From: a virus
Length of the DNA: 15,851 nucleotides
Direction: 5' to 3' (one strand)
Virus record (IMG/VR): IMGVR_UViG_3300045988_113302
Under the pieces are notes generated by a model that had not been told where the DNA came from, did not search any database, and saw only the letters and a list, made by a program, of their open reading frames with translations. Every line of letters starts with the position of its first letter. Position 1 is the first letter of the stretch. A program made the position numbers and the translations under genes. Positions 318 through 15,851 of this stretch are shown piece by piece.

Positions 318-346
318 TTGACAAAATTACATAATAGGTTTACAAT
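318..346 (+). promoter_or_regulatory. SigmaA-like promoter P1 (TTGACA, 17-nt spacer, TACAAT)
   Basis: TTGACA at 318-323 and TACAAT at 341-346, with a 17-nt spacer. It lies 45 nt upstream of the 391 ATG. The downstream leader TACAATAGACTATAGATAGGAACA resembles the leaders of P2 and P3. Confidence 0.7.
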
Positions 347-1372: not shown

Positions 1373-1859
1373 GGACTACCTCTTAAGTTTGCGGGGAAAA
1401 CAGCGGCGCGAGATGTACAAACAGCTTGTGCCGCTTGCAAATAAGCAGAAAGCACGAATTGAAAAGCAAGGCTTGGAGAAAGAAAGTGTGCTAAATGTAC
1501 TACATAAGCGGACTAACTGGGATATAGATAAGTACAATTCACGCGCTTATCTTAAGTTGGTTCGATTTGTTACAGCGCGCTCTCATACTTTAACTGGGAT
1601 AAAGGAAATAAGGCAGGAACGTACGCAAGCATTACGCGATATGGGAATATCTGAAAATCTGTTAAATGAAGCAGATTTTTATACTTTTTTGCATAGTCAA
1701 GAATACAAAAGTTTAAAAATGCGTAACCCATCGGAGGATATTATCGAAATTTATGATTTACTTTTTTCGCAGGGTAAGTCACATACAGAAATACAACAAG
1801 AATTGCAAGAATATTCTAGCGCTACACATGTCTATGTAAAGGGGAGAGCTTTATGGTAA
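1362..1859 (+). CDS. Putative terminal protein (replication primer); start uncertain (ATG 1362 or TTG 1341)
   Basis: A basic 165-aa ORF immediately upstream of the protein-primed polymerase. Its stop overlaps the polymerase start (ATGGTAA at 1853-1859). The call rests on synteny with phi29 gene 3/gene 2 only; no sequence motif was recognised and the RBS is weak. Confidence 0.4.
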   Translation: MYNKDYLLSLRGKQRREMYKQLVPLANKQKARIEKQGLEKESVLNVLHKRTNWDIDKYNSRAYLKLVRFVTARSHTLTGIKEIRQERTQALRDMGISENLLNEADFYTFLHSQEYKSLKMRNPSEDIIEIYDLLFSQGKSHTEIQQELQEYSSATHVYVKGRALW

Positions 1860-4039
1860 TATCTGTACAGCAGACTAAAAATGGAAAAGAAACGATTGAA
1901 ACTAAAGAAACAGTGTATTCTGTAGCGTCATACCCATATGACGCTACAGTTTTAGATTGTACTACAGTACGGAAAAAAGGGCGAAATGGACTTACATATA
2001 TAGCGCGTCCGGCAACGTTTGACATAGAAAGTACAACTATAGACGGCGAAAAACCAGAAGCATTTATGTATCATTGGCAGTTTTGCTTGAATGGTAAAGT
2101 CTGTTTTGGGCGAACTTGGGAAGAATGGATAAATTTTATGCATAAGCTAGGAACTACTTTGGAATTGGACGCTAAAAAAGTGTTAGTAATATATGTCCAT
2201 AATTTAGCTTATGAATTTATGTTTATAAAGGATTTTTTGCATATAGAATCACTTTTTGCGAGAGAAGCGCACAAGGTTATTAAAGTTTTAGCTTGCTTGG
2301 GTAATGATTACGGGAAAAGTATAAATAAAGTTGGGAATGTTTCACGTGAAACATTTCTTCTTCCCTTTTTTGAATTTAGGTGTAGTTATTTTTTATCAAA
2401 TATGTCTTTATCTAAATTTTGCGAAAATAGCAAATTTTGCACACACTATAAATTAGTAGACACTTATGATTATAGAAAAATACGGACACCGTCGACGCCG
2501 ATGACGGAGGAAGAATTAGCGTATTGTTATAACGATGTAAAAGGTTTAGAAGAGTGCATTTTGTCGAAATTAGATGACGAGTGTGACACGTTAGCTACCA
2601 TACCTTTAACATCGACAGGATACGTGCGGCGAGAAATGCGTGCAGAGTGTCGAAAATATCCAGAATATCGCGAACTTTTTGAAATACTTATGCCTACTAC
2701 GCAAATTTATACGTTATTGCGTCAAGCGTTTCGTGGCGGCAATACTCATGCGTCAAGGTACTATGCAGATGCCGTCATAGAGGGAGTTTTCAGCAAAGAT
2801 AGAGTGTCTAGCTATCCGGCATGTATTGTATCTGATTTATACCCAATGACACCATTTATAGTGTACGAACCTAAGTCTTACGCACAACTTATAGCGGATT
2901 GTGGAAAAAAGAAAAATGCTATAATAATGCGTATAACTTTATTTGATTTAGATGTGCACGATGATGTGACCGTGCCATATATTGATTTTGCGCACTGTAT
3001 AGCCTACAGTAAAAATTATGTAAATGATAACGGACGAGTGTTATCAGCCGATTGGATAACATATGCTTGTACAGAGTTGGACTTTTTAATCATAAATAAT
3101 CAATATAGCTACGATACTATGCGCCTAGAATGGCTAGAGGGCTACAAGGCAGAGAAAGACTACTTGCCTAAACCCATAGTTGACACAGCTCTTTCTTATT
3201 ATGACAAGAAAACACAATTAAAAGATGTGAGTGGAAAAGAATATGAGTATGCAAAAAGCAAAAATAAGGCTAATTCCGTTTTTGGTGTTATGGTTACAGA
3301 TATATGTCAAGGCGAAATAGAATATATAGATGGCGTTTGGTCTAAGACTATGCCGGATAAGGAAAGTGCTATAGCGGCTTACGCCGCAAGCAAAAACTCT
3401 TTTTTGCTTTATCAATGGGGAGTTTACATTACAGCAAATGCGCGCTATGAACTGCAATGCATGATTGATGCTTGCGGCTATGATTTTGTGTACACAGACA
3501 CGGATAGTGTAAAATTTATTGGTGAAGAACATTTAAAATCTTTTGACGACAGAAATAATTATTTATTATCCAAAAAACAAAAGTACAGAAATTATAGTGA
3601 TCGTTTAAACGATGATGGCACAACAACGCGATACACGCTCGGTGTATGGGATGATGATGGTTTTTATAAAAAGTTTAAAACATTGGGTGCGAAAAAGTAT
3701 GCATATATTGCGGACGAGAAAAACAAAAAAACCGGAGAGATAGAAGAAGTTTTACATGTCACTGTTTCCGGCTTATCAAAAACAAAAGGCGCGGCAGAAC
3801 TTGCGCGTGGAAATGGCTTAGCTGATTTTAAAATTGGCAAAATATTTACTGACTCGGGGCGCACAGTGTCATACTTTAATGAGAGCGATGTACATACTAT
3901 AAAAGTAGTAGATTACAATGGAAAAGAAAGTGAGTTTACCACAGCGTCAAACATAGCAATAGTTGATACTACTTATACTTTAGGTGTATCTGACGAGTAC
4001 GCCGCCGTCTTAGGCTCTTGTATAAATTTTTTTGAATAA
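1853..4039 (+). CDS. Protein-primed family-B DNA polymerase (phi29 type)
   Basis: Exo I FDIES, Exo II HNLAYEF, Exo III YCYNDV, motif A DRVSSYP, motif B KxxxNSVFG, motif C YTDTDS and KxY LGAKKYAY occur in the canonical order. It is 728 aa, longer than the phi29 enzyme. Confidence 0.93.
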   Translation: MVISVQQTKNGKETIETKETVYSVASYPYDATVLDCTTVRKKGRNGLTYIARPATFDIESTTIDGEKPEAFMYHWQFCLNGKVCFGRTWEEWINFMHKLGTTLELDAKKVLVIYVHNLAYEFMFIKDFLHIESLFAREAHKVIKVLACLGNDYGKSINKVGNVSRETFLLPFFEFRCSYFLSNMSLSKFCENSKFCTHYKLVDTYDYRKIRTPSTPMTEEELAYCYNDVKGLEECILSKLDDECDTLATIPLTSTGYVRREMRAECRKYPEYRELFEILMPTTQIYTLLRQAFRGGNTHASRYYADAVIEGVFSKDRVSSYPACIVSDLYPMTPFIVYEPKSYAQLIADCGKKKNAIIMRITLFDLDVHDDVTVPYIDFAHCIAYSKNYVNDNGRVLSADWITYACTELDFLIINNQYSYDTMRLEWLEGYKAEKDYLPKPIVDTALSYYDKKTQLKDVSGKEYEYAKSKNKANSVFGVMVTDICQGEIEYIDGVWSKTMPDKESAIAAYAASKNSFLLYQWGVYITANARYELQCMIDACGYDFVYTDTDSVKFIGEEHLKSFDDRNNYLLSKKQKYRNYSDRLNDDGTTTRYTLGVWDDDGFYKKFKTLGAKKYAYIADEKNKKTGEIEEVLHVTVSGLSKTKGAAELARGNGLADFKIGKIFTDSGRTVSYFNESDVHTIKVVDYNGKESEFTTASNIAIVDTTYTLGVSDEYAAVLGSCINFFE
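2336..2355. repeat. Palindrome copy A (AATGTTTCACGTGAAACATT) inside the polymerase ORF
   Basis: A 20-bp perfect palindrome with the 18-bp core ATGTTTCACGTGAAACAT at 2337-2354. It is read in frame as NVSRETF between the Exo II and Exo III motifs. Confidence 0.9.
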
Positions 4040-4689: not shown

Positions 4690-4717
4690 TTGACATTTCC
4701 GGCAATGAGCGTATAAT
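4690..4717 (+). promoter_or_regulatory. SigmaA-like promoter P3 (TTGACA, 16-nt spacer, TATAAT)
   Basis: TTGACA at 4690-4695 and TATAAT at 4712-4717. The leader TATAATAGATAATGTAAGGAACA is homologous to those of P1 and P2. Confidence 0.7.
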
Positions 4718-4776
4718 AGATAATGTAAGGAACATACAAAACAATAAACAACAAAACAGAAAGTGAGGAAAACAAA

Positions 4777-4959
4777 ATGAAATTACATGATTTAGTACTT
4801 AGTAATTTAGAGTATATGTCGGATACAAAATTAGAAATATATGACTATGAAGTGCCGCGCATGATTGCATTTGGCACATCAGCAAAACTAATAGAAGATG
4901 GTTATGGTAATTATCCTGTTAAATTTTTTAATGGTATGCGAATTTACGTTTTGACATAA
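4777..4959 (+). CDS. Hypothetical early protein (60 aa)
   Basis: RBS AGTGAGGAAA 8 nt upstream. It is the only gene in the P3 unit. Confidence 0.5.
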   Translation: MKLHDLVLSNLEYMSDTKLEIYDYEVPRMIAFGTSAKLIEDGYGNYPVKFFNGMRIYVLT

Positions 4960-5441: not shown

Positions 5442-5870
5442 ATGTCAAGCAGAAAAATCAGAGGAATCGTAAGAAACATTTTTGTCAAAGATGACAACGA
5501 AGTATCAATTTTAATCGAGATCGACGAGAAAACAGCGGCAGAGCTCCGCGGCGTGTATGATGCAAAGATCGAAAACCCGCTCAAGGATGGAGAGGGCGAA
5601 CTTGAGGGTAAGGTGCTGTACAAGGCGCATACGAAATATCCGGTAAACCTCTACATGCAGGGCGACCCTGTGGAAACAGATGATGATGACGAAACCATTG
5701 AGGAAATTCGTAAGATCGGCAATGGTTCGGCTGTTACAATTCGTGTACGCGAACAGTTAGACGGGCGGTACAAGTCCAAGAAATTCCAGTCTGCTTATCT
5801 CAAGGCGATCAATGTACGCGAGCTTGTAGAAGCAGAGCCCTACATGGATTTTGACGAAGATGACAATTAA
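5442..5870 (+). CDS. Putative ssDNA-binding protein (acidic C-terminal tail)
   Basis: 142 aa with an internal DDDDE stretch and the extreme C-terminus DFDEDDN, a tail typical of phage and bacterial SSBs. It sits in the replication/early block. This is inference only. Confidence 0.35.
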   Translation: MSSRKIRGIVRNIFVKDDNEVSILIEIDEKTAAELRGVYDAKIENPLKDGEGELEGKVLYKAHTKYPVNLYMQGDPVETDDDDETIEEIRKIGNGSAVTIRVREQLDGRYKSKKFQSAYLKAINVRELVEAEPYMDFDEDDN

Positions 5871-5880
5871 ATAACGATCA

Positions 5881-6192
5881 GCCGCAGAACTGCCATCCAA
5901 CCGCATGAAACAACATACATGCAGTAGAATGTCATTAAATGGCAATAAACGGCATTGCACAGCACTGAATGTTGTGTGATGCCGATGGATGGCAGATAGG
6001 CGGGTGTATTGCATTACGGGTATTGGATAGTTATTTTGTTTCTCGTTTTCCTCCGACTTGCCTTAGTCGAAAATGTCCAGTTTTTATGTCAACCAGTACC
6101 CGTAATGGAGTATTACCCGCTATCCCGTTAAAGCCCCGTACACCATGCGGAAAAACGCAGGGGTGCAGAGTGGTGTCTGCAAGGATAGCGGC
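5881..6192 (+). ncRNA. Unclassified structured RNA candidate with three closed helical domains; possible pRNA analogue or structured holin leader
   Basis: It lies in a 356-nt gap with no credible ORF. Domain 1: 5882-5885/6000-6003, 5890-5899/5986-5995 (10 bp) and hairpin 5950-5984 (14 bp, 3 G-U). Domain 2: 6012-6026/6093-6107 (15 bp, 1 G-U) and hairpin 6054-6058/6065-6069. Domain 3: 6117-6125/6183-6191 (9 bp), 6134-6137/6160-6163, 6146-6149/6156-6159 and hairpin 6165-6169/6176-6180. The bulge CACCA at 6141-6145 is complementary to the loop TGGTG at 6171-6175. The G-U pairs would be A-C mismatches on the minus strand, which argues for a + strand RNA. Confidence 0.55.
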
Positions 6193-6226
6193 GAACCTCT
6201 AAAATTAAATAAGGGAGAGTAAAAAG

Positions 6227-6550
6227 ATGATTTATTTAATTACTTTTTTGTTTATGGTTCTGGATTTTATAAGCGGAATCGTAATGGCAGTGAAGAACAA
6301 GAATTTCAATTCTTCCATTATGCGGGAAGGGCTTTTCAACAAGTTCGGTTCTGTTTGCGTGATTGCTTGCGCGGTGCTGATTGACTGGGGGCAGATTTAT
6401 CTTGATATTGGTTTTACCGTTCCGGTAGCGTCTGCAATGTGCAGTTATATTATTCTCATGGAAATCGGTTCGATTTTGGAAAACGTAGGAAGAATAAATA
6501 AGAACTTAGTACCCGAGAAAATCCGGTCGATATTAGAAAAGGTTTCATAA
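6227..6550 (+). CDS. Holin (Phage_holin_4_1 / LL-H-TcdE-like, 3 TM)
   Basis: 107 aa with three hydrophobic segments. Motifs are DFISGIVMAV, SS..REG...K and EIGSILENV, typical of that holin family. RBS GGGAGAG. Confidence 0.8.
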   Translation: MIYLITFLFMVLDFISGIVMAVKNKNFNSSIMREGLFNKFGSVCVIACAVLIDWGQIYLDIGFTVPVASAMCSYIILMEIGSILENVGRINKNLVPEKIRSILEKVS

Positions 6551-6570
6551 TGTTTCACGTGAAACATTAT
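6547..6570. repeat. Palindrome copy C (ATAATGTTTCACGTGAAACATTAT, 24 bp)
   Basis: This is the longest copy. It overlaps the holin stop codon (6548-6550) and abuts tRNA position +1 at 6571. Confidence 0.9.
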
Positions 6571-6641
6571 TGGCGCGTAGTTCAGAGGGAGAACAGTAGA
6601 TTTTGACTCTATAGTCGCGGGTTCGATTCCCGCCGCGCTAG
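6571..6641 (+). tRNA. tRNA-Gln (anticodon UUG)
   Basis: Manual cloverleaf. Acceptor TGGCGCG/CGCGCTA with U1-A72 and one G-U. D arm GTTC-AGAGGGA-GAAC. Anticodon arm GTAGA-TTTTGAC-TCTAT, with U33, TTG and A37. Variable loop AGTC. T arm GCGGG-TTCGATT-CCCGC. Discriminator G. No encoded CCA, and a T7 run follows. Confidence 0.85.
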
Positions 6642-6662
6642 TTTTTTTGGAGGAAAAGAGAA

Positions 6663-7730
6663 ATGAAGTTTACAAGACCTTATTACAATTTAGATGAAAT
6701 TAAAAGTGTAAAAGATTTAGATGGTTGCGAACCGATCTTGAGAATGATTATTGGAAACCGTAGCGCCGGAAAAACCACGGCTTTATTGATTGAAAGCTTG
6801 AATAAACATAAAGAGGATAGATCGCAAGTTGTATTTTTATACAGAACACAAGACGAGATAGCAAGCAGTGGCAAAATGTATGAAGATGTTTTTGACAATT
6901 ACCCAGAAATGGGTAAAATGGTTACAAATAAAAGTGTAGTTAAAGGGCTTATTAGCGCTATGATTTTACATGACGCAGAGGAAAATCAAAGCGTTTTAGG
7001 CTATGCGGTTTATTTTAACAATCCCGATAAAATCAAAAAATATAGCCCTATGTTTAAAGATGTAAATTTGATTGTTTTTGATGAATTTGTACTTGAAAAC
7101 AATGGTTATTTAAAAAATGAGATAACTAAGTTTGAAAGCGTTTTGCGTAGTATATGCCGTGGCAAAGGTAAGCAAGTGCGTGATGTTCCAGTTTACATGC
7201 TTGCGAACTATGTAGTTTTGCTAAACCCATATTATATATTTTTTGGTATGCACAAACGATTGCGTGATAATACAAGGTTTTTACGCGGTCATGGTTGGGT
7301 AGCACAATTTACTATCAATAAAAGTGCTCAGAAAGCGCTTAATGAAAGCGGCTTAAGTAAAGTTTTTAGTAATAGTGCGTATACGCTATCATCCGCTGAT
7401 GGAATTTATCTATGTGATGCCACGGCTTTTGTTGAAAAAATCAGTGGAAACAGTAACTATATTTTTACTCTTGTATGTGGGAAAGATCGTTTTGCTGTAA
7501 GAGAGTATCCGGAAAAAGGAATAGTTTATATTGACTACACAGCAGACCCAAACGCAAGACATATTTTTACATTTGACCCATCAAGCCACAATGCAGATAC
7601 GCTTATGTTATCGAGTAAGTCTTTTATTTATGATTATTTAAAGAGGGCTTATGATATGGGGCTATTGCGTTTTAAAGATTTGAAGTGTAAGAATATTGTG
7701 TTGGATATTTTGAGTGTGAGGTTGATGTAA
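6663..7730 (+). CDS. DNA encapsidation (packaging) ATPase, phi29 gp16-like
   Basis: Walker A GNRSAGKT and Walker B LIVFDEF. NPYYIFFG, VYIDYTADP and GLLRFKD match remembered gp16 motifs (IVFDEF, NPYFLFF, YIDTAHDP, GYLRFDN). RBS GGAGGA. Confidence 0.88.
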   Translation: MKFTRPYYNLDEIKSVKDLDGCEPILRMIIGNRSAGKTTALLIESLNKHKEDRSQVVFLYRTQDEIASSGKMYEDVFDNYPEMGKMVTNKSVVKGLISAMILHDAEENQSVLGYAVYFNNPDKIKKYSPMFKDVNLIVFDEFVLENNGYLKNEITKFESVLRSICRGKGKQVRDVPVYMLANYVVLLNPYYIFFGMHKRLRDNTRFLRGHGWVAQFTINKSAQKALNESGLSKVFSNSAYTLSSADGIYLCDATAFVEKISGNSNYIFTLVCGKDRFAVREYPEKGIVYIDYTADPNARHIFTFDPSSHNADTLMLSSKSFIYDYLKRAYDMGLLRFKDLKCKNIVLDILSVRLM

Positions 7731-9166: not shown

Positions 9167-10444
9167 TTGGCTAATAAAGTAGCGGCAACAAACGTTGCCA
9201 TATTAAACGCAGTGAGATCTATGCAAAGTCTGGAGTATCGGGACAGGATTCCCGAAGCGACGGCGGAAAATATCTCAAGTATCTATGAAAGTTTGCTCAA
9301 CATAGTTCCGTTAAGAAATGCGTTTGCTAACGCTTTGGTTGAGCAAATTATGGAGCAGAGAATCGAAACCGTCTTTTTTGAGAATCCTCTGGGAGTGCTT
9401 AAGAGAGATCCGATGCGATACGGCGGCACAGAAGAAGAAATTTTTATCAATATGGCAAAAGGTAAGCAGTTTAACCAGTTCGCAACCGTTGCAGAACTGT
9501 ATGCCTACTATCAGTCAAGTGTCATGGCGGCGTATCACAAGATCACACCCGCTATCCAGTACGCGGTTACAGTCACTTTTGACAACTTGCGTACAGCGTT
9601 TAGATCAGAGTATGGTGTGCGCGATCTGATTAACGCAAAAGTACAGTCACTTTTTGCGGCGGCGAACTGGGATGAATACCTCTGTATGAAGCGTCTTATT
9701 GAGAGCGCAAGTGCAGCAGATCAGCTTTACGCGGTTAATGTTGCAGACCCTACAGCGAGCGCAGAAAACGCTAAAAAGCTGACAAAGCTTGTAAAAGCCT
9801 ACATCGGACAGATGAAATTTCCCCATCCAGAGTACAACATTGCCGGAGCAGACAGTTGCGCAAACGATCAGACTATCTTTTATATCACTACGCCGGAGAT
9901 CGACGCAGAGTTAGACGTTGAGGTACTTGCCACAGCGTTTAATATGGACAAGGTGGATATTAACGTCCGCAAGATCATCATTGACAAGTTTGATGACCCG
10001 AACATTAAGCTTGCGTTATTTGACATGAGATTTTTCAATGTGCGCGAGAATTTTCGGACACTGACGGATTCGAGAAATGGTGCGGCGCTGACGTGGAATT
10101 ATTTTTACACGATGTCTGAAATGTTTTCCTATTCTCCATTTTTCCCTTGTATCGTCTTTACCACAGACACCGTCGGGCTTACAGCCGTGAGTGTTACAGA
10201 CACCGCCGGAAACGTGGGAACTGATGTGGAGATCACGGCGTTAGTAAGCGGAGACAGCCAGTACACGCCGCAGATGCTTGACTATGACGTTGAAGGCGCT
10301 ACAAGTCAGTATACGTCCTTTATCCCCGGTTCAAATATTTTACATATTGCAAATGATGAAAAAACGGCAACACTTACGGTCAAAGCAACGTCAAGATATA
10401 ATAGCACGATCAGTGGGACAGGTACTGTCACAGTCAACCAGTAA
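9167..10444 (+). CDS. Major capsid protein with C-terminal Ig-like (BIG2-like) domain; TTG start
   Basis: 425 aa, following the scaffold as gene 8 does in phi29. The C-terminus (LTAVSVTDTAG...ATLTVKATS...GTGTVTV) looks like a bacterial Ig-like domain. RBS GTGAGGT is 8 nt before the TTG at 9167. Confidence 0.8.
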   Translation: MANKVAATNVAILNAVRSMQSLEYRDRIPEATAENISSIYESLLNIVPLRNAFANALVEQIMEQRIETVFFENPLGVLKRDPMRYGGTEEEIFINMAKGKQFNQFATVAELYAYYQSSVMAAYHKITPAIQYAVTVTFDNLRTAFRSEYGVRDLINAKVQSLFAAANWDEYLCMKRLIESASAADQLYAVNVADPTASAENAKKLTKLVKAYIGQMKFPHPEYNIAGADSCANDQTIFYITTPEIDAELDVEVLATAFNMDKVDINVRKIIIDKFDDPNIKLALFDMRFFNVRENFRTLTDSRNGAALTWNYFYTMSEMFSYSPFFPCIVFTTDTVGLTAVSVTDTAGNVGTDVEITALVSGDSQYTPQMLDYDVEGATSQYTSFIPGSNILHIANDEKTATLTVKATSRYNSTISGTGTVTVNQ

Positions 10445-10472
10445 AATGTTTCACGTGAAACATTGATTTTTT
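10445..10472 (+). terminator. Palindrome copy D plus T-run: likely intrinsic terminator after the capsid gene
   Basis: AATGTTTCACGTGAAACATT at 10445-10464 is followed by GATTTTTT. It is the only copy with a U-tract. A second hairpin, AGGGGAG-TGCAATG-CTCCCCT, follows at 10474-10494. Confidence 0.6.
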
Positions 10473-10509
10473 GAGGGGAGTGCAATGCTCCCCTAGAAAT
10501 GAGGGAAAC

Positions 10510-12195
10510 ATGGATAGCATGATACCTATGCCAACACAAAAAAACGTAGACGGGATAGCACCTGTTGCACAAGTAAGAATCTGCCGCGGGATTCCTTGGG
10601 ATTCGTCGTATAACCATGTAAGGCTTTTTAATAGTCGAGAAGAACTTTTTGCTTATGTTGATAGCAAAGCAATTTATAGTACTGATAATGCCGCGCCAGT
10701 TAAGAGAGGTTACGCGGATTTTGCCGCGCCCGTCAACGAGTTATACGCCGATAGCGCTAACTATATCGCATTTAAAAATGTTGGATATATGGATAATTGG
10801 ATGTACGGCTTTATTACGAGCGTAGAACCGTTATCCGTGAACTCTTGCCGCGTGCATTTTATCATGGACGTCTGGACGAATTGCCAATTCGATATGGTGC
10901 TAAATAAGTGCTATATCGAACGCCAGATTGTAAAAAAGAGTGAAGATGTGATAGGGCGGTATACTTTTCCAGAGGGATTGGAGACCGGAGATTATATCGT
11001 AAAACAAGAGACAGAACAAAATTATGATGCGCCGGAACTAAGTGATCGAAACATTATGAGCGTTGTCGTTCCGAGCGCATTTGACGAGAGCGGAAATTTT
11101 AACGGCGGCGAATTTAGAGATGGCGTGTATACTGCCATCACTTATAACGTTTTTGATAATGGAGACGGCGTAAACGAATTTTTAATTTCTGCTAACGCAA
11201 ATGGTACTATTGACGGAATTTTAAACGCGTTTATGATGCCAAGCAGCTTTATCGCAGAGGAAACACAATTCAAGCAACTTAATCTACCAAAAAAGTATGA
11301 CAGTATTGACGGCTATGTGCCGAAAAACAAAAAGCTGTTTTGTTATCCATATAACTTTTTATACGGAAACAACAACAACGGCACAGGAATAGAGTATAAA
11401 TATGAGTATTTTTCCAGTGACGCTTGTAGTTTTACTTATACAGTAGCTATGACACCTAACCCACTATTAGTGTCCTACCCCATCCAGTATAGAGGATACA
11501 CCGTAGATTATACCGATATGCTTACATTTTCGGACTATCCAAAATGCGCCATCATGACAGACGCATACAAGGCATATATTGCGCAAATGACAAGCACCGC
11601 GGGCGCGAGCGCTTTAATGAGCGCGGGAAACGCGGTTTCGCAAGGTGTTGACACTGCCACCGGAGTTTTTAGCGGCGTTGGAAAAGCGTTATCTGGTGCG
11701 GGTTTTGGTTTTTTGGGTGCGGCGGCGAGTGGAGCGGGAAACGCCATAGCAACAGGAAAGCAAGCCGCAAGTGACGCTTTTAAGTCTAGTCCATTAAGTA
11801 CTCTTGGTAGCACTGATTGGTCTGATGTTATCGGGAACGGTATAAAGGCGGTAGTTAATCATTTTTTACAGCCGAGTGGAAACGTCACAACTGCTAGCGG
11901 TAATGCTAGTAAGATCATCGGAAACGATCACATTAGCTATTATCCGATGCAAATTCGAGCAGAGTATGCGCGGAAGATTGATGACTATTTTACCATGTTT
12001 GGGTACAAGATTGGAGAGATCGGACAACCCGCAATCAACAATAGATCGGCATGGGATTTTGTCAAAACACGTAATTGCACGATCAGCGGTAACATTGACC
12101 TTGATTACCTTGTTGTTTTACGATCAATATTTGATCGCGGTGTGACAATATGGCACACTAATGACATCGGTAATTATGGGCTTACAAACAATTAA
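10510..12195 (+). CDS. Tail knob / distal tube protein, phi29 gp9-like
   Basis: The N-terminus VRICRGIPWDSSYNHVRLF...ANYIAFKN...NWMYGFITSVE...VHFIMDVWTN parallels the remembered gp9 N-terminus (VRILADVPFSNDY...FQNADYGNKWFYAFVTELE). A Gly/Ala-rich hydrophobic loop lies near nt 11581-11790. The start is set at ATG 10510, after GAGGGA. Confidence 0.82.
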   Translation: MDSMIPMPTQKNVDGIAPVAQVRICRGIPWDSSYNHVRLFNSREELFAYVDSKAIYSTDNAAPVKRGYADFAAPVNELYADSANYIAFKNVGYMDNWMYGFITSVEPLSVNSCRVHFIMDVWTNCQFDMVLNKCYIERQIVKKSEDVIGRYTFPEGLETGDYIVKQETEQNYDAPELSDRNIMSVVVPSAFDESGNFNGGEFRDGVYTAITYNVFDNGDGVNEFLISANANGTIDGILNAFMMPSSFIAEETQFKQLNLPKKYDSIDGYVPKNKKLFCYPYNFLYGNNNNGTGIEYKYEYFSSDACSFTYTVAMTPNPLLVSYPIQYRGYTVDYTDMLTFSDYPKCAIMTDAYKAYIAQMTSTAGASALMSAGNAVSQGVDTATGVFSGVGKALSGAGFGFLGAAASGAGNAIATGKQAASDAFKSSPLSTLGSTDWSDVIGNGIKAVVNHFLQPSGNVTTASGNASKIIGNDHISYYPMQIRAEYARKIDDYFTMFGYKIGEIGQPAINNRSAWDFVKTRNCTISGNIDLDYLVVLRSIFDRGVTIWHTNDIGNYGLTNN

Positions 12196-12210: not shown

Positions 12211-13101
12211 ATGAAAAATCAATCTAAAGACGCTGAATATTTTAGCGTACCACAGTATCGCAATTATTATGTGCGTTACTTTAATATGTTGCATGAAATG
12301 ATCGTGAACCGATTTGAATGGTTGGGATTGCCGGATGAAATTCCACCGAGAGTATTGGAAGATTATCTTTTCTGGTGGGGACAGGCTGTCTTTTTTAAAG
12401 ATGATGTACTAGAAAAATACGCCGCTATGAAAACCAACCTTGGCGGTACTGTAGATATTTATGGCGTACCTAGCATGCGTTTCGCCTATGCACAACAGTA
12501 TTTTAAAACGCTTGGAAAAAATAACAGTGTCATCATCTGGGATAGTAGCGTAGGTTATCCTAGCATTGACTATGTGCAGATGTACGCGGAAAGTTTGGCA
12601 AATATGAGGATGACAAGAAATTTAAATATTTACGCGCAAAGAACGCCTGTTGTTATTGCGGGTAGCGAAAATCAGCGCTTAAGTACAAAAAACCTTTTTA
12701 AACAGTATAATGATTTTGTACCATTTATCAGCGTTAAAGACGGAATTAGTAACGTTGAGAACATGAAAGTACTAAATCTAAACCCACCTAACGTGTTCGG
12801 TGACCTTACAACGGCTATGAGACAAGAAATTGCAGACTTTTGCGTGCAGTTCGGTATTAGTAATATTGACGGCACAAAAAAAGAGCGACTAATTACAAGC
12901 GAAGTAGAGCAAGATGCAGACCTTACGTTAATTAACCGCCAGTCTTTTTTAGGTGTACGAAAACGCGCTTGTGAACAGATTAACCGCCTGTTTGGACTTG
13001 AGGTTGATGTGCGCTACATCGGTAGCGGACTTGGCGTTGAGAGAAAAGAAAACCTTGAGAGAGGGGGCGGAGAAAATGGCGACATATACAACCAGAATTA
13101 G
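12211..13101 (+). CDS. Portal / upper collar (connector) protein, phi29 gp10-like
   Basis: FEWLGLPDEIP, NIYAQRTPVVIAGSENQRLS, KKERLITSEV and RKRACEQINRLFGLEVDVRY parallel gp10 motifs (FEWENLP, NQNAQKTPVLI, KKERMVTDEV, REEACEKINELYGLNV). Confidence 0.9.
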   Translation: MKNQSKDAEYFSVPQYRNYYVRYFNMLHEMIVNRFEWLGLPDEIPPRVLEDYLFWWGQAVFFKDDVLEKYAAMKTNLGGTVDIYGVPSMRFAYAQQYFKTLGKNNSVIIWDSSVGYPSIDYVQMYAESLANMRMTRNLNIYAQRTPVVIAGSENQRLSTKNLFKQYNDFVPFISVKDGISNVENMKVLNLNPPNVFGDLTTAMRQEIADFCVQFGISNIDGTKKERLITSEVEQDADLTLINRQSFLGVRKRACEQINRLFGLEVDVRYIGSGLGVERKENLERGGGENGDIYNQN

Positions 13102-14924: not shown

Positions 14925-15554
14925 ATGTATAAGAAAGACTATCATCCAGACGAAAATTTAATTTTTGAGACAGAACACTATCAGTTTCCGGTGTCCAAGA
15001 GTACCACGGAAGACCCCGATCTTGAAAGAACTGTAAAAATCGACGAAGCGCTATACGATGAAGCAAAAGTAAGGTTAAACGAAGATACAAAACTAAACAA
15101 AAAAATTGATGATGAAACCAAAAACAGAGAAAACGCTGACCAGTCGTTGGAATCAGAAATCTATAAAATAACGCCAAGTATCAAATTTTTGTATTTTGGT
15201 AAAGATGATTTTACCACGTTAAGCGGTTCTCCGGCAAATGTAGAAGTTTATATAACAATGCTAAAGATAAATGATATTATTATTATGTTTCATAGAGTTA
15301 TATTTACTGGGAATGCTCCAAGTAATTTTATTTCTTACACTGCACAACTAGATCTGACAAAAGTAATACAGAGCGGCTACAAGGTAAGCAATTTTACTAT
15401 ATGGCAATCTTTAATACACAAAGACGATAACATTTTAGCTACTCGTAGCAATAATATACAAATTATAAACAATAATAAATATCTGTACTACCAAACGCAA
15501 GAACCTACTGGATGCGTTTTTTGCGGTACTACAATTTGCATGTTATCGGAATAA
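14925..15554 (+). CDS. Second putative fibre / receptor-binding protein (209 aa)
   Basis: RBS GAGAGGAG. It is the terminal gene of the structural block, with a short charged helical segment followed by a very AT-rich C-terminal domain. Its stop codon TAA (15552-15554) forms the first three bases of ITR-R. No motif was recognised. Confidence 0.45.
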   Translation: MYKKDYHPDENLIFETEHYQFPVSKSTTEDPDLERTVKIDEALYDEAKVRLNEDTKLNKKIDDETKNRENADQSLESEIYKITPSIKFLYFGKDDFTTLSGSPANVEVYITMLKINDIIIMFHRVIFTGNAPSNFISYTAQLDLTKVIQSGYKVSNFTIWQSLIHKDDNILATRSNNIQIINNNKYLYYQTQEPTGCVFCGTTICMLSE

Positions 15555-15851
15555 GTTATCCACAGCAAACAAGTGTTCGATAGTGTTCGCCCACCAGAGA
15601 CAGGTTGTGTCCGCGGTGGACGGACACTTTTTGTTTTAATTGTATATACAATTATGATAAATTGTTCTATTGTCTGGTTTCAACAAAATCAATAGTAAAA
15701 GTGCATAAAGTTTTTACATATATTTGTGCAATATTACTATTGACATCTTATGATTGATCAAGTTTCCCGTAGCGAATTTAATATCTGAAAATCGAACAAG
15801 TGTTTGTATTTTTGGGGAAAACAGTGTCCGCGGTACACGGACTATGTAACT
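15552..15851. repeat. Right inverted terminal repeat (ITR-R), 300 bp
   Basis: Exact reverse complement of 1-300. Confidence 0.95.
15607..15637 (+). terminator. Rho-independent terminator of the rightward transcription unit, embedded in the ITR
   Basis: GTGTCCG-CGGTGGA-CGGACAC (7-bp GC-rich stem) is followed by TTTTTGTTTT. The mirror copy at 225-245 would stop only leftward (minus-strand) transcription. Confidence 0.75.

Follow-up and report, generated by a model that had tools for sequence, protein, structure and literature searches.

The window studied here is the whole 15,851-bp stretch of IMG/VR virus record IMGVR_UViG_3300045988_113302, a phage genome in which every gene lies on the + strand. 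Does the gap at 5871-6226, between a 142-amino-acid (aa) open reading frame (ORF) and a holin gene, encode an RNA of the DNA-packaging motor? The prohead/packaging RNA (pRNA) of phage phi29 is, to our knowledge, the only known RNA that forms a structural part of such a viral motor, and it is a workhorse of RNA nanotechnology. An initial annotation of the window had proposed a pRNA-type RNA of a new sequence class at 5881-6192. These limits are its own delimitation. The idea is supported by the topology of the predicted fold, by covariation, by a covarying kissing pair and by genomic context. We conclude that 6117-6193 is probably the core of a divergent pRNA.

The fold and its junction core

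That the 142-aa ORF and the holin gene are separated by a gap is confirmed. As a + strand RNA, 5871-6226 reaches a minimum free energy (MFE) of -133.1 kcal/mol, as compared to -93.9 +/- 5.4 kcal/mol for dinucleotide shuffles (z -7.3; none of 100 shuffles folds as well); on the - strand, z is -5.7. By domain, z amounts to -7.6 (5890-5995), -6.6 (5999-6120) and -3.6 (6117-6193). The predicted elements of the fold and of its 3' core, all on the + strand, are:

5881-6192: whole predicted structured RNA (outer helix, domains 1 and 2, pRNA-like domain 3)
5881-5885/6188-6192: outer 5-bp helix, GCCGC/GCGGC (MFE, prediction only)
5890-5899/5986-5995: 10-bp helix (MFE)
5950-5964/5970-5984: 15-bp helix (MFE)
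6012-6026/6093-6107: 15-bp helix (MFE)
6117-6193: domain 3, pRNA-like three-way-junction core (covariation, model R2, see below)
6117-6125/6183-6191: 9-bp A helix (MFE), 5' strand CCGCTATCC, partner GGATAGCGG; 9/9 pairs change on both sides in alignment A7 (see below)
6133-6137/6160-6164: C helix, GCCCC/GGGGT; 5/5 pairs compensatory
6138-6145: 8-nt 5' bulge GTACACCA, counterpart of the CE or right-hand loop of pRNA
6146-6159: E hairpin, TGCG, GAAAAA, CGCA (4 bp, 6-nt loop); 3/4 pairs compensatory
6165-6180: D hairpin, GCAGA, GTGGTG, TCTGC; 4/5 stem pairs compensatory

Along the core, the 9-bp A helix is followed by 7 unpaired nucleotides, the 5-bp C helix, the 8-nt 5' bulge and the E hairpin; then come the 3' strand of C, the 5-bp D hairpin, AA and the 3' strand of A. 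CACCA at 6141-6145, inside the 5' bulge, is complementary to TGGTG at 6171-6175 in the hairpin loop, exactly where the initial annotation had located the pair. This D loop is the counterpart of the left-hand (D) loop of pRNA. The three-way-junction fold of 6117-6193 is isoenergetic with the MFE fold (-33.5) and becomes the MFE fold once the ten kissing bases are held unpaired.

Much of the fold as initially described survives this analysis. The gap does fold far better than its dinucleotide shuffles, and the helices of the three closed helical domains are present, although the outer helix and the fold of domain 1 are not conserved beyond the closest clade. The helices given as 10, 14, 15 and 9 bp are all found in the MFE structure, where the one of 14 bp has in fact 15. 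Five G-U pairs had been counted; the MFE structure of the gap contains 14. The strand assignment based on such pairs stands, because G-U pairs and switches from G-U to G-C or A-U in alignments A6 and A7 fix the RNA on the + strand. On the other hand, the gap had been described as devoid of a credible ORF and does hold one of 77 aa (5969-6202), although it is not kept in relatives and has no Pfam or family match. Compensatory changes in the outer 5-bp helix are absent from clade A, and clade B has no equivalent 5-bp helix.

Covariation and genomic linkage in relatives

Every relative with an identity of 55% or more in the gp16-type DNA-encapsidation ATPase has a syntenic gap of 328-399 nt upstream of its holin gene. 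In 30 IMG/VR contigs (78-99% ATPase identity), it measures ~335-360 nt and separates a 132-157-aa ORF from the holin gene. Clade A, which consists of the window and L001-L005, is alignable throughout. Clade B (L006-L030) goes undetected by blastn, and its MAFFT alignment shows that the architecture of the 3' part is kept. On clade A, RNAalifold gives 96 pairs, 15 of which are compensatory and belong either to domain 3 or to the long domain 2 stem; clade B has further compensatory pairs in its own domain 2 stem. A covariance model built on clade A (R1) recovers clade B at 31-36 bits. When the bulge/loop pairs are entered as a pseudoknot in an alignment of clades A and B (A6), 98.2% of the cells pair, versus 33-43% with slid partners, and 17 of the 28 pairs change on both sides. 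A second model, R2, built on both clades, scores 89 bits on the window core and gives the following scores in other relatives:

L131 (ATPase identity 56%): 68 bits
L132-L135 (56%): 64.5 bits
L141 (39%): 40.7 bits
L137 (42%): 23 bits
L136 (47%): 19 bits

Alignment A7 comprises 13 sequences with ATPase identities of 39-100%. Here, 98.0% of the cells pair, versus 32-45% with slid partners, 22 of the 28 pairs are compensatory, and all four helices covary. On each of five measures, all 500 shuffles fall short of the observed value; two of these measures count pairs or pair types and seldom give false positives. The conservation of helices for which the initial annotation had looked to related genomes is thus found in domains 2 and 3, which covary, and hardly in domain 1.

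The five kissing columns pair in 100% of the cells of both A6 and A7, with one pair switching from C-G to A-U and another from A-U to G-U. Across lineages, the complementarity that marks a pRNA occurs in at least nine different bulge/D-loop pairs:

clade A (window): CACCA/UGGUG
clade B: AACCG/UGGUU or AACCA/UGGUU
L131, L132, L141: AACCA/UGGUU
L137: ACCA/UGGU
L136: AUCC/GGAU
L139 (48% ATPase identity): GACAA/UUGUC
Clostridium phage HM2, L317: GUAGU/ACUAC
L316: GACU/AGUC
L143: AAGCA/UGCUU
L142: UAGCA/UGCUA
L335: AUGCA/UGCAU

Clades C and D carry AACC(A/G)/UGGUU, as do clade B and L141. In L139, HM2/L317, L316, L143, L142 and L335, the same element order is read in the gap after the ATPase gene. 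In addition, a structure-blind MAFFT alignment of 29 RNAs of a second class (class 2) from gut contigs has 88% of its cells paired, versus 27-44% with slid partners. Its kissing column pair 13-60 is AU in 10 sequences, UG in 10, UA in 5 and CG in 1, and pair 14-59 is AU in 21, UA in 3 and CG in 1. Other contigs show the variants UUCC/GGAA, GGAA/UUCC, GCAA/UUGC and AAACA/UGUUU. Since so many lineages keep the complementarity with different sequences, it is a selected feature and not a coincidence.

The genomic placement of the RNA varies between lineages. The RNA is followed by the holin, (tRNA) and ATPase genes, in this order, in the window and in clades B-D. In L136, L137 and L141, the 106-128-nt gap that comes directly after the ATPase stop codon is taken up by the motif. 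The L141 RNA has ~115 nt and a bulged A helix of ~28 bp made from its 5' and 3' ends; a long A helix is present also in L137, L318 and L319. In HM2, L316, L317 and L139, the RNA is followed by an intrinsic terminator and then by a new promoter. In the class-2 gut relatives, a terminator follows the RNA, with no co-oriented gene beyond it. In L142, L143 and Clostridium phage CS229P2, the ATPase gene, the RNA and the terminator make up the sole + strand unit, with a - strand block on either side. The common neighbour across lineages is the packaging ATPase gene, and the genomes all have gp10-type connectors. Overall, gp16-linked, covarying RNAs of pRNA architecture occur in hundreds of uncultured phages of 15-18 kb, plus isolates such as HM2.

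In phi29-like phages that are cultured or abundant in the gut, the gp16 gene is immediately followed by a structured RNA of 110-150 nt and an intrinsic terminator, both unannotated. RNAs after the gp16 gene were located at:

L031 (Clostridium phage HM2): 6113-6184
L035 (CS229P2): ~10430-10560
L142: 11069-11229
L143: 10934-11074

Sequence searches have a short reach for this RNA. When the region was compared by blastn with 50,697 phage records, the tRNA was the sole match. R2 found nothing below E 0.46 on HM2, three MT8358xx gut contigs, MT836152 and CS229P2, whose RNAs were located by eye and with a structural descriptor. A search of IMG/VR for the pattern TGGAGTAKTACC...GRAAAAC returned solely additional members of clades A and B, and the pattern CGTAAACCRNNNNGRAAAAC gave no new members there. 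In metagenome_contigs, the latter pattern was swamped by chance matches, R2 confirming none of 80 loci among the matches listed. The generic descriptor is significant in gaps adjacent to the ATPase gene: in 11 of 17 gaps (ATPase-adjacent or, for the window's clades, syntenic) it beat all 200 dinucleotide shuffles, and in two more all but 4 of the 200. No literature description of these gp16-linked RNAs was found.

Comparison with phi29 pRNA and competing explanations

On phi29, which as a positive control scores 145 bits against a gathering threshold of 100 bits, the Rfam model RF00044 lays out its consensus as A5', C5' (9 bp), a 9-nt 5' bulge GAUUAAACC ending in AAACC, E (4 bp, 6-nt loop), C3', UUU, D (6 bp, loop UGGUU) and A3'. 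The window core is the same three-way junction with the same order A5', C5', 5' bulge, E, C3', D, A3'. In both RNAs, the 3' end of an 8-9-nt bulge on the 5' side is complementary to the D-hairpin loop, and the E hairpin, of 4 bp with a 6-nt loop, is continuous with the C helix on the 3' strand. The E loop G(A/G)AAAA is kept in clades A-D, L137 and L141, and the AACC/GGUU pair of phi29 is literally present in clades B-D. Relatives L141 and L137 share with phi29 a version of ~115 nt with a long, bulged, end-to-end A helix. The bulge-to-hairpin-loop arrangement that had been likened to that of phi29 pRNA is thus borne out, since the element order matches the Rfam consensus and the complementarity covaries.

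The genomic setting agrees as well. Like phi29, the window phage is a small podophage whose replication is protein-primed and which encodes both a gp16 ATPase and a gp10 connector; the two proteins match PF05894 and PF05352, as their initial reading had implied. Protein-primed replication, a gp16-type ATPase and a gp10-type connector, which form the context of a pRNA, are therefore all present. The ATPase is the presumed protein partner of the RNA and the connector its presumed docking site. The N-terminus of the connector is uninformative on this point because it has no phi29-like RKR cluster.

Differences from phi29 pRNA were also found. The C helix has 3-6 bp as compared to 9 bp, the kissing pair 5 bp as compared to 4 bp, and the host is not Bacillus. 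RF00044 gives no match at the gathering threshold anywhere in the genome, and no other pRNA candidate or Rfam RNA besides tRNA-Gln was found in it. This accords with two initial statements, that no pRNA-like sequence is apparent at the genome ends and that the RNA is unlike phi29 pRNA in sequence and so would be a new class, the latter holding even at E <= 10.

Several of the observations weigh against a pRNA. At E <= 10, RF00044 matches neither 5700-6400 nor 6100-6210 nor the compact relative L141, and R2 does not match the pRNA on phi29. Because the two models fail on each other's family, homology with the Bacillus-phage pRNAs is undemonstrated, and we describe the RNA as pRNA-like in architecture and context, not as a member of RF00044. 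The junction linkers are of 7-8, 0 and 2 nt, instead of 1, 3 and 0 nt in phi29. In place of the long (~25 bp) ATPase-docking A helix, the window has one of 7-9 bp that leads into a multi-branch loop. With its 310 nt, the RNA includes 235 nt of additional 5' structure where phi29 has its 3' domain II. Its position is mid-genome, with the 142-aa ORF on one side and the holin gene on the other, near the ATPase gene, and not at the left end as in phi29; the gap contains no promoter-like or terminator-like site of its own. Within the window's class, the RNA always precedes the holin gene, which leaves room for a role in cis. Sequence alone does not separate an intermolecular kiss from an intramolecular pseudoknot. 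Finally, the generic descriptor does not discriminate on a genome-wide scale, where it ranks the true parse of phi29 pRNA below a false one, nor in the 80 loci L316-L395, of which 22% score at least 28 versus 12% of controls; hence our reliance on covariation counts. The parses in the distant L033, L035 and L140 are doubtful.

Known pRNAs share ~12% sequence similarity, with their structure kept; prohead binding resides in pRNA bases 22-84, and packaging requires the A helix (PMC5066667). Reviews know pRNA only from phi29 and related Bacillus phages (PMC5066667, PMC11476376). The 12 pRNAs contributed by an Infernal survey of 2025 all go back to seeds from the Bacillus-phage families phi29, GA1 and DLc1 (PMC12670572). 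For Streptococcus phage Cp-1, a putative pRNA was proposed by Martin et al. in 1996, and a passage of PMC6266182 has it that a Bacillus-based model is unreliable there. In the Cp-1 genome (L396), the top genome-wide match of our descriptor is a clean three-way junction at 4704-4787 on the - strand (A 6 bp, C 11 bp, bulge AUGGUUA, E 5 bp, D 6 bp, D loop UUCUAACCAAC) with a 6-bp complementarity, UGGUUA/UAACCA, and none of 300 shuffles reaches its score. The junction is flanked by the orf7 terminator and the late promoters, runs opposite to the genes and carries no annotation in the record. This may be the candidate of 1996. Cp-1 resembles the window in being a non-Bacillus phi29-like phage, and Bacillus-derived models are not a reliable means of finding its proposed pRNA. 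Unlike the window RNA, its element is opposite-strand to the surrounding genes and not beside the ATPase gene, and the two share no sequence similarity.

From these features, we infer how a packaging RNA of this kind would work. It would be transcribed on the + strand together with the holin gene, tRNA-Gln and the gp16 ATPase gene, and then excised from this long transcript. Excision is plausible, because a tRNA in the same gene string implies that this stretch of transcript is cut by RNA-processing enzymes. The excised RNA would fold into the three-way junction, with the C-E arm, its 8-nt bulge and the D hairpin forming a head, through which it docks at the prohead's portal vertex. The CACCA bulge of one molecule would pair with the UGGUG D loop of the next, so that an RNA ring forms around the connector; the phi29 ring closes through AACC/GGUU. 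The A-helix side would point outward and hold the ATPase ring that pumps the terminal-protein-linked DNA into the head. The short A helix could be extended by the outer helix or by the coaxially stacked 120-nt hairpin of domain 2, and the latter arrangement would approach the geometry of a circularly permuted pRNA. Since no nucleotide separates C from D, these two helices probably stack end to end. On such a rod, the bulge and the D loop would be ~10 bp apart, which disfavours pairing in cis.

Three other explanations have to be weighed. In one of them, the RNA would be a different trans-acting phage non-coding RNA (a decoy, an anti-defence RNA or a ribozyme), with the kissing pair acting as an intramolecular pseudoknot and the likeness to pRNA being convergent. 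The mutual failure of the two covariance models, the junction linkers unlike those of phi29 and the 235 nt of additional structure in the window version fit this view, and phages commonly have large structured RNAs whose function is unknown. We nevertheless regard it as unlikely: the RNA is repeatedly found in tight linkage with a gp16 gene, always in genomes with a gp10-type connector, its element sizes match those of pRNA, the 0-nt linker would work against cis pairing, and no ribozyme or RNA family in Rfam matches it. A structured 5' leader controlling translation or read-through of the holin gene (and of late genes), with the CCUCU tail or the UUCCUCC of domain 2 hiding the holin ribosome-binding site (RBS), would explain why the RNA stands directly upstream of a PF05105 holin, with no terminator between them, in the window, clades B-D, L137 and L141, and why the gap holds neither promoter nor terminator. 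A conserved tail, GCGAA(A/C)CYCU, whose CUCU RNAalifold pairs with the RBS GGGAG, would serve the same purpose; these pairs are invariant, however, and so are no evidence either way. Terminators weaken this holin-leader alternative, which the initial annotation had raised: HM2, L316, L317 and L139 have a terminator and a new promoter after the same architecture, the RNAs of L142, L143 and class 2 are followed by a terminator and an oppositely oriented gene, and the shared neighbour is the ATPase gene, not the holin gene. A leader also leaves unexplained the covarying bulge/loop pair in a pRNA-shaped junction, and we consider it improbable.

The third explanation takes the region, or at least its 5' third, to act as DNA, as an early/late regulatory element or an array of protein sites, the folds being by-products of inverted or phased repeats. 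It draws on the phased GGCA/TGGCA motifs found in all four clades while the domain 1 fold is not conserved, on the near absence of compensatory change in domain 1 and on the position of the gap between the replication genes and those for lysis, packaging and structure. It applies to domain 1 only, as the compensatory changes with G-U intermediates in domains 2 and 3 fit a + strand RNA alone, and the gap has no promoter-like site. For the region as a whole we hold it to be very improbable; for domain 1 taken alone, action at the DNA level is a possibility, if a doubtful one.

A further group of known RNAs was tried and set aside. For ROOL, GOLLD, riboswitches, self-splicing introns and ribozymes, Rfam 15 gives no match in the region, at gathering or at E <= 10; the best match, to Mahella-1 (E 0.63, 14 bits versus a threshold of 70.7 bits), is at chance level. 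The RNA shares with ROOL and GOLLD, which the initial annotation had offered as alternatives, and with riboswitches and introns, all of them excluded by these results, the character of a long structured intergenic RNA near a phage tRNA gene. It differs from them in having a conserved unit of only ~75 nt and another architecture.

A broader reading can be entertained tentatively. Packaging RNAs would then not be peculiar to Bacillus phages: the gp16/gp10 motor of phi29-like podophages, be it in Clostridia, gut Firmicutes or streptococci, would almost universally include one of ancestral origin, which existing models miss because of its divergence. The window's clade would have a 310-nt, three-domain version in which the stacked 120-nt hairpin replaces the ATPase-docking helix, as a natural circular permutation, and the 5' GGCA array at a 10-nt phase would recruit a further motor or genome-end protein. 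Should these RNAs work like pRNA, the RNA component would be old and general in this type of motor; as related RNAs lie next to the packaging-ATPase gene of many non-Bacillus phages, such an unusual motor component may have a much wider distribution than has been assumed. The natural bulge/loop pairs and junction variants would then be a ready test set for how much variation is accepted in ring assembly and in ATPase docking, and the 310-nt version would show that a motor RNA can bear large extra domains.

Neighbouring genes, domains 1 and 2 and the 3' tail

The genes and sites around the RNA, all on the + strand, are:

1853-4039: protein-primed family-B DNA polymerase (PHROG)
4690-4717: perfect sigma-70 consensus (TTGACA, 16 nt, TATAAT), nearest strong promoter-like site upstream of the RNA
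5442-5870: 142-aa ORF, upstream border of the gap
6227-6550: holin gene (PF05105, 74 bits), directly downstream of the RNA
6570-6642: tRNA-Gln (UUG), in the same co-directional gene string as the RNA
6663-7730: gp16-type DNA-encapsidation ATPase (355 aa; PF05894, 95 bits; PHROG 2150)
12211-13101: gp10-type portal or upper collar connector (PF05352, 159 bits)

Other + strand genes encode an amidase-type endolysin, several small ORFs, a phi29-type major capsid protein and a gp9-type tail knob. Among isolates, the nearest ATPase is that of Clostridium phage HM2 (42% identity); those of Bacillus phage GA-1 and phi29 relatives share ~24-28%. Positions 1-300 and 15552-15851 are perfect 300-bp inverted terminal repeats, and since they occupy both ends, the window is a complete linear genome. 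Terminal repeats measure 6 bp in phi29 and 236 bp in Cp-1, so that the length found here is nearer to that of Cp-1. Both repeats contain a promoter-like site (169-198) as well as GC-rich hairpins (10-26, 225-245). A second near-perfect sigma-70 site lies at 318-346 (+), just inside the left repeat. The site at 4690-4717 is 1.17 kb upstream of the RNA and ahead of an ORF at 4777-4959. As predicted sites, the two suggest two transcription units. Among relatives, L140 (39% identity) has a 300-nt gap after its ATPase gene (6380-6679) that opens with a perfect TTGACA-17-TATAAT promoter and ends in a tRNA-like T arm (GGTTCGATTCCG), a design unlike that of the other relatives.

The conserved pRNA-like core represents only the 3' ~75 nt of the RNA; domains 1 and 2 are additions particular to the window's group of clades. 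The remaining features of the gap, again on the + strand, are:

5890-5995: domain 1, 10-bp closing helix and three hairpins, with GGCA at 5941, 5951 and 5991
5999-6121: domain 2, long hairpin with a stem of 8 + 4 + 15 bp and a variable tip
6190-6200: conserved 3' tail GCGAACCTCT, GCGA(A/G)(A/C)C(C/U)C in four clades
GGCA/TGGCA array: window 5941, 5951, 5991; L131 5233-5263; L006 3222-3300; L132 5623, 5643

Domain 1, a lineage-specific addition, has almost no covariation in clade A, and its fold differs between clades. In all four clades, the 5' third of the gap contains GGCA/TGGCA motifs in steps of 9-10 or 19-21 nt, perhaps protein-binding sites on RNA or DNA. Domain 2 abuts the A helix of domain 3 with zero spacer and has ~10 compensatory pairs in clade A and 4 in clade B; the base of its helix, GGUAC.../...GUACCG, is kept in clades B-D.

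The CUCU of the tail may pair with the holin RBS at 6213-6219 (GGGAGAG), as RNAalifold predicts for clade A. Both the tail (GCGAACCUCU) and UUCCUCC at 6046-6052, in the tip of domain 2, are anti-Shine-Dalgarno-like, and either could mask this RBS. In clade B (L006-L030), an extra GC-rich hairpin of 9 bp (GCGGCGGTA...TACCGCCGC, for instance L006 3513-3545), absent from clade A, lies between the core and the holin RBS; no U-run follows this hairpin, which therefore does not qualify as a canonical terminator.

The outer two to four pairs of the A helix (6117-6120/6188-6191) compete with the closing helix of domain 2 (5999-6006/6114-6121) and with the outer helix (5881-5885/6188-6192). Clade B has an analogous alternative pairing, CGG/CCG with a bulged A. 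These competing pairings could be a conformational switch or a coincidence.

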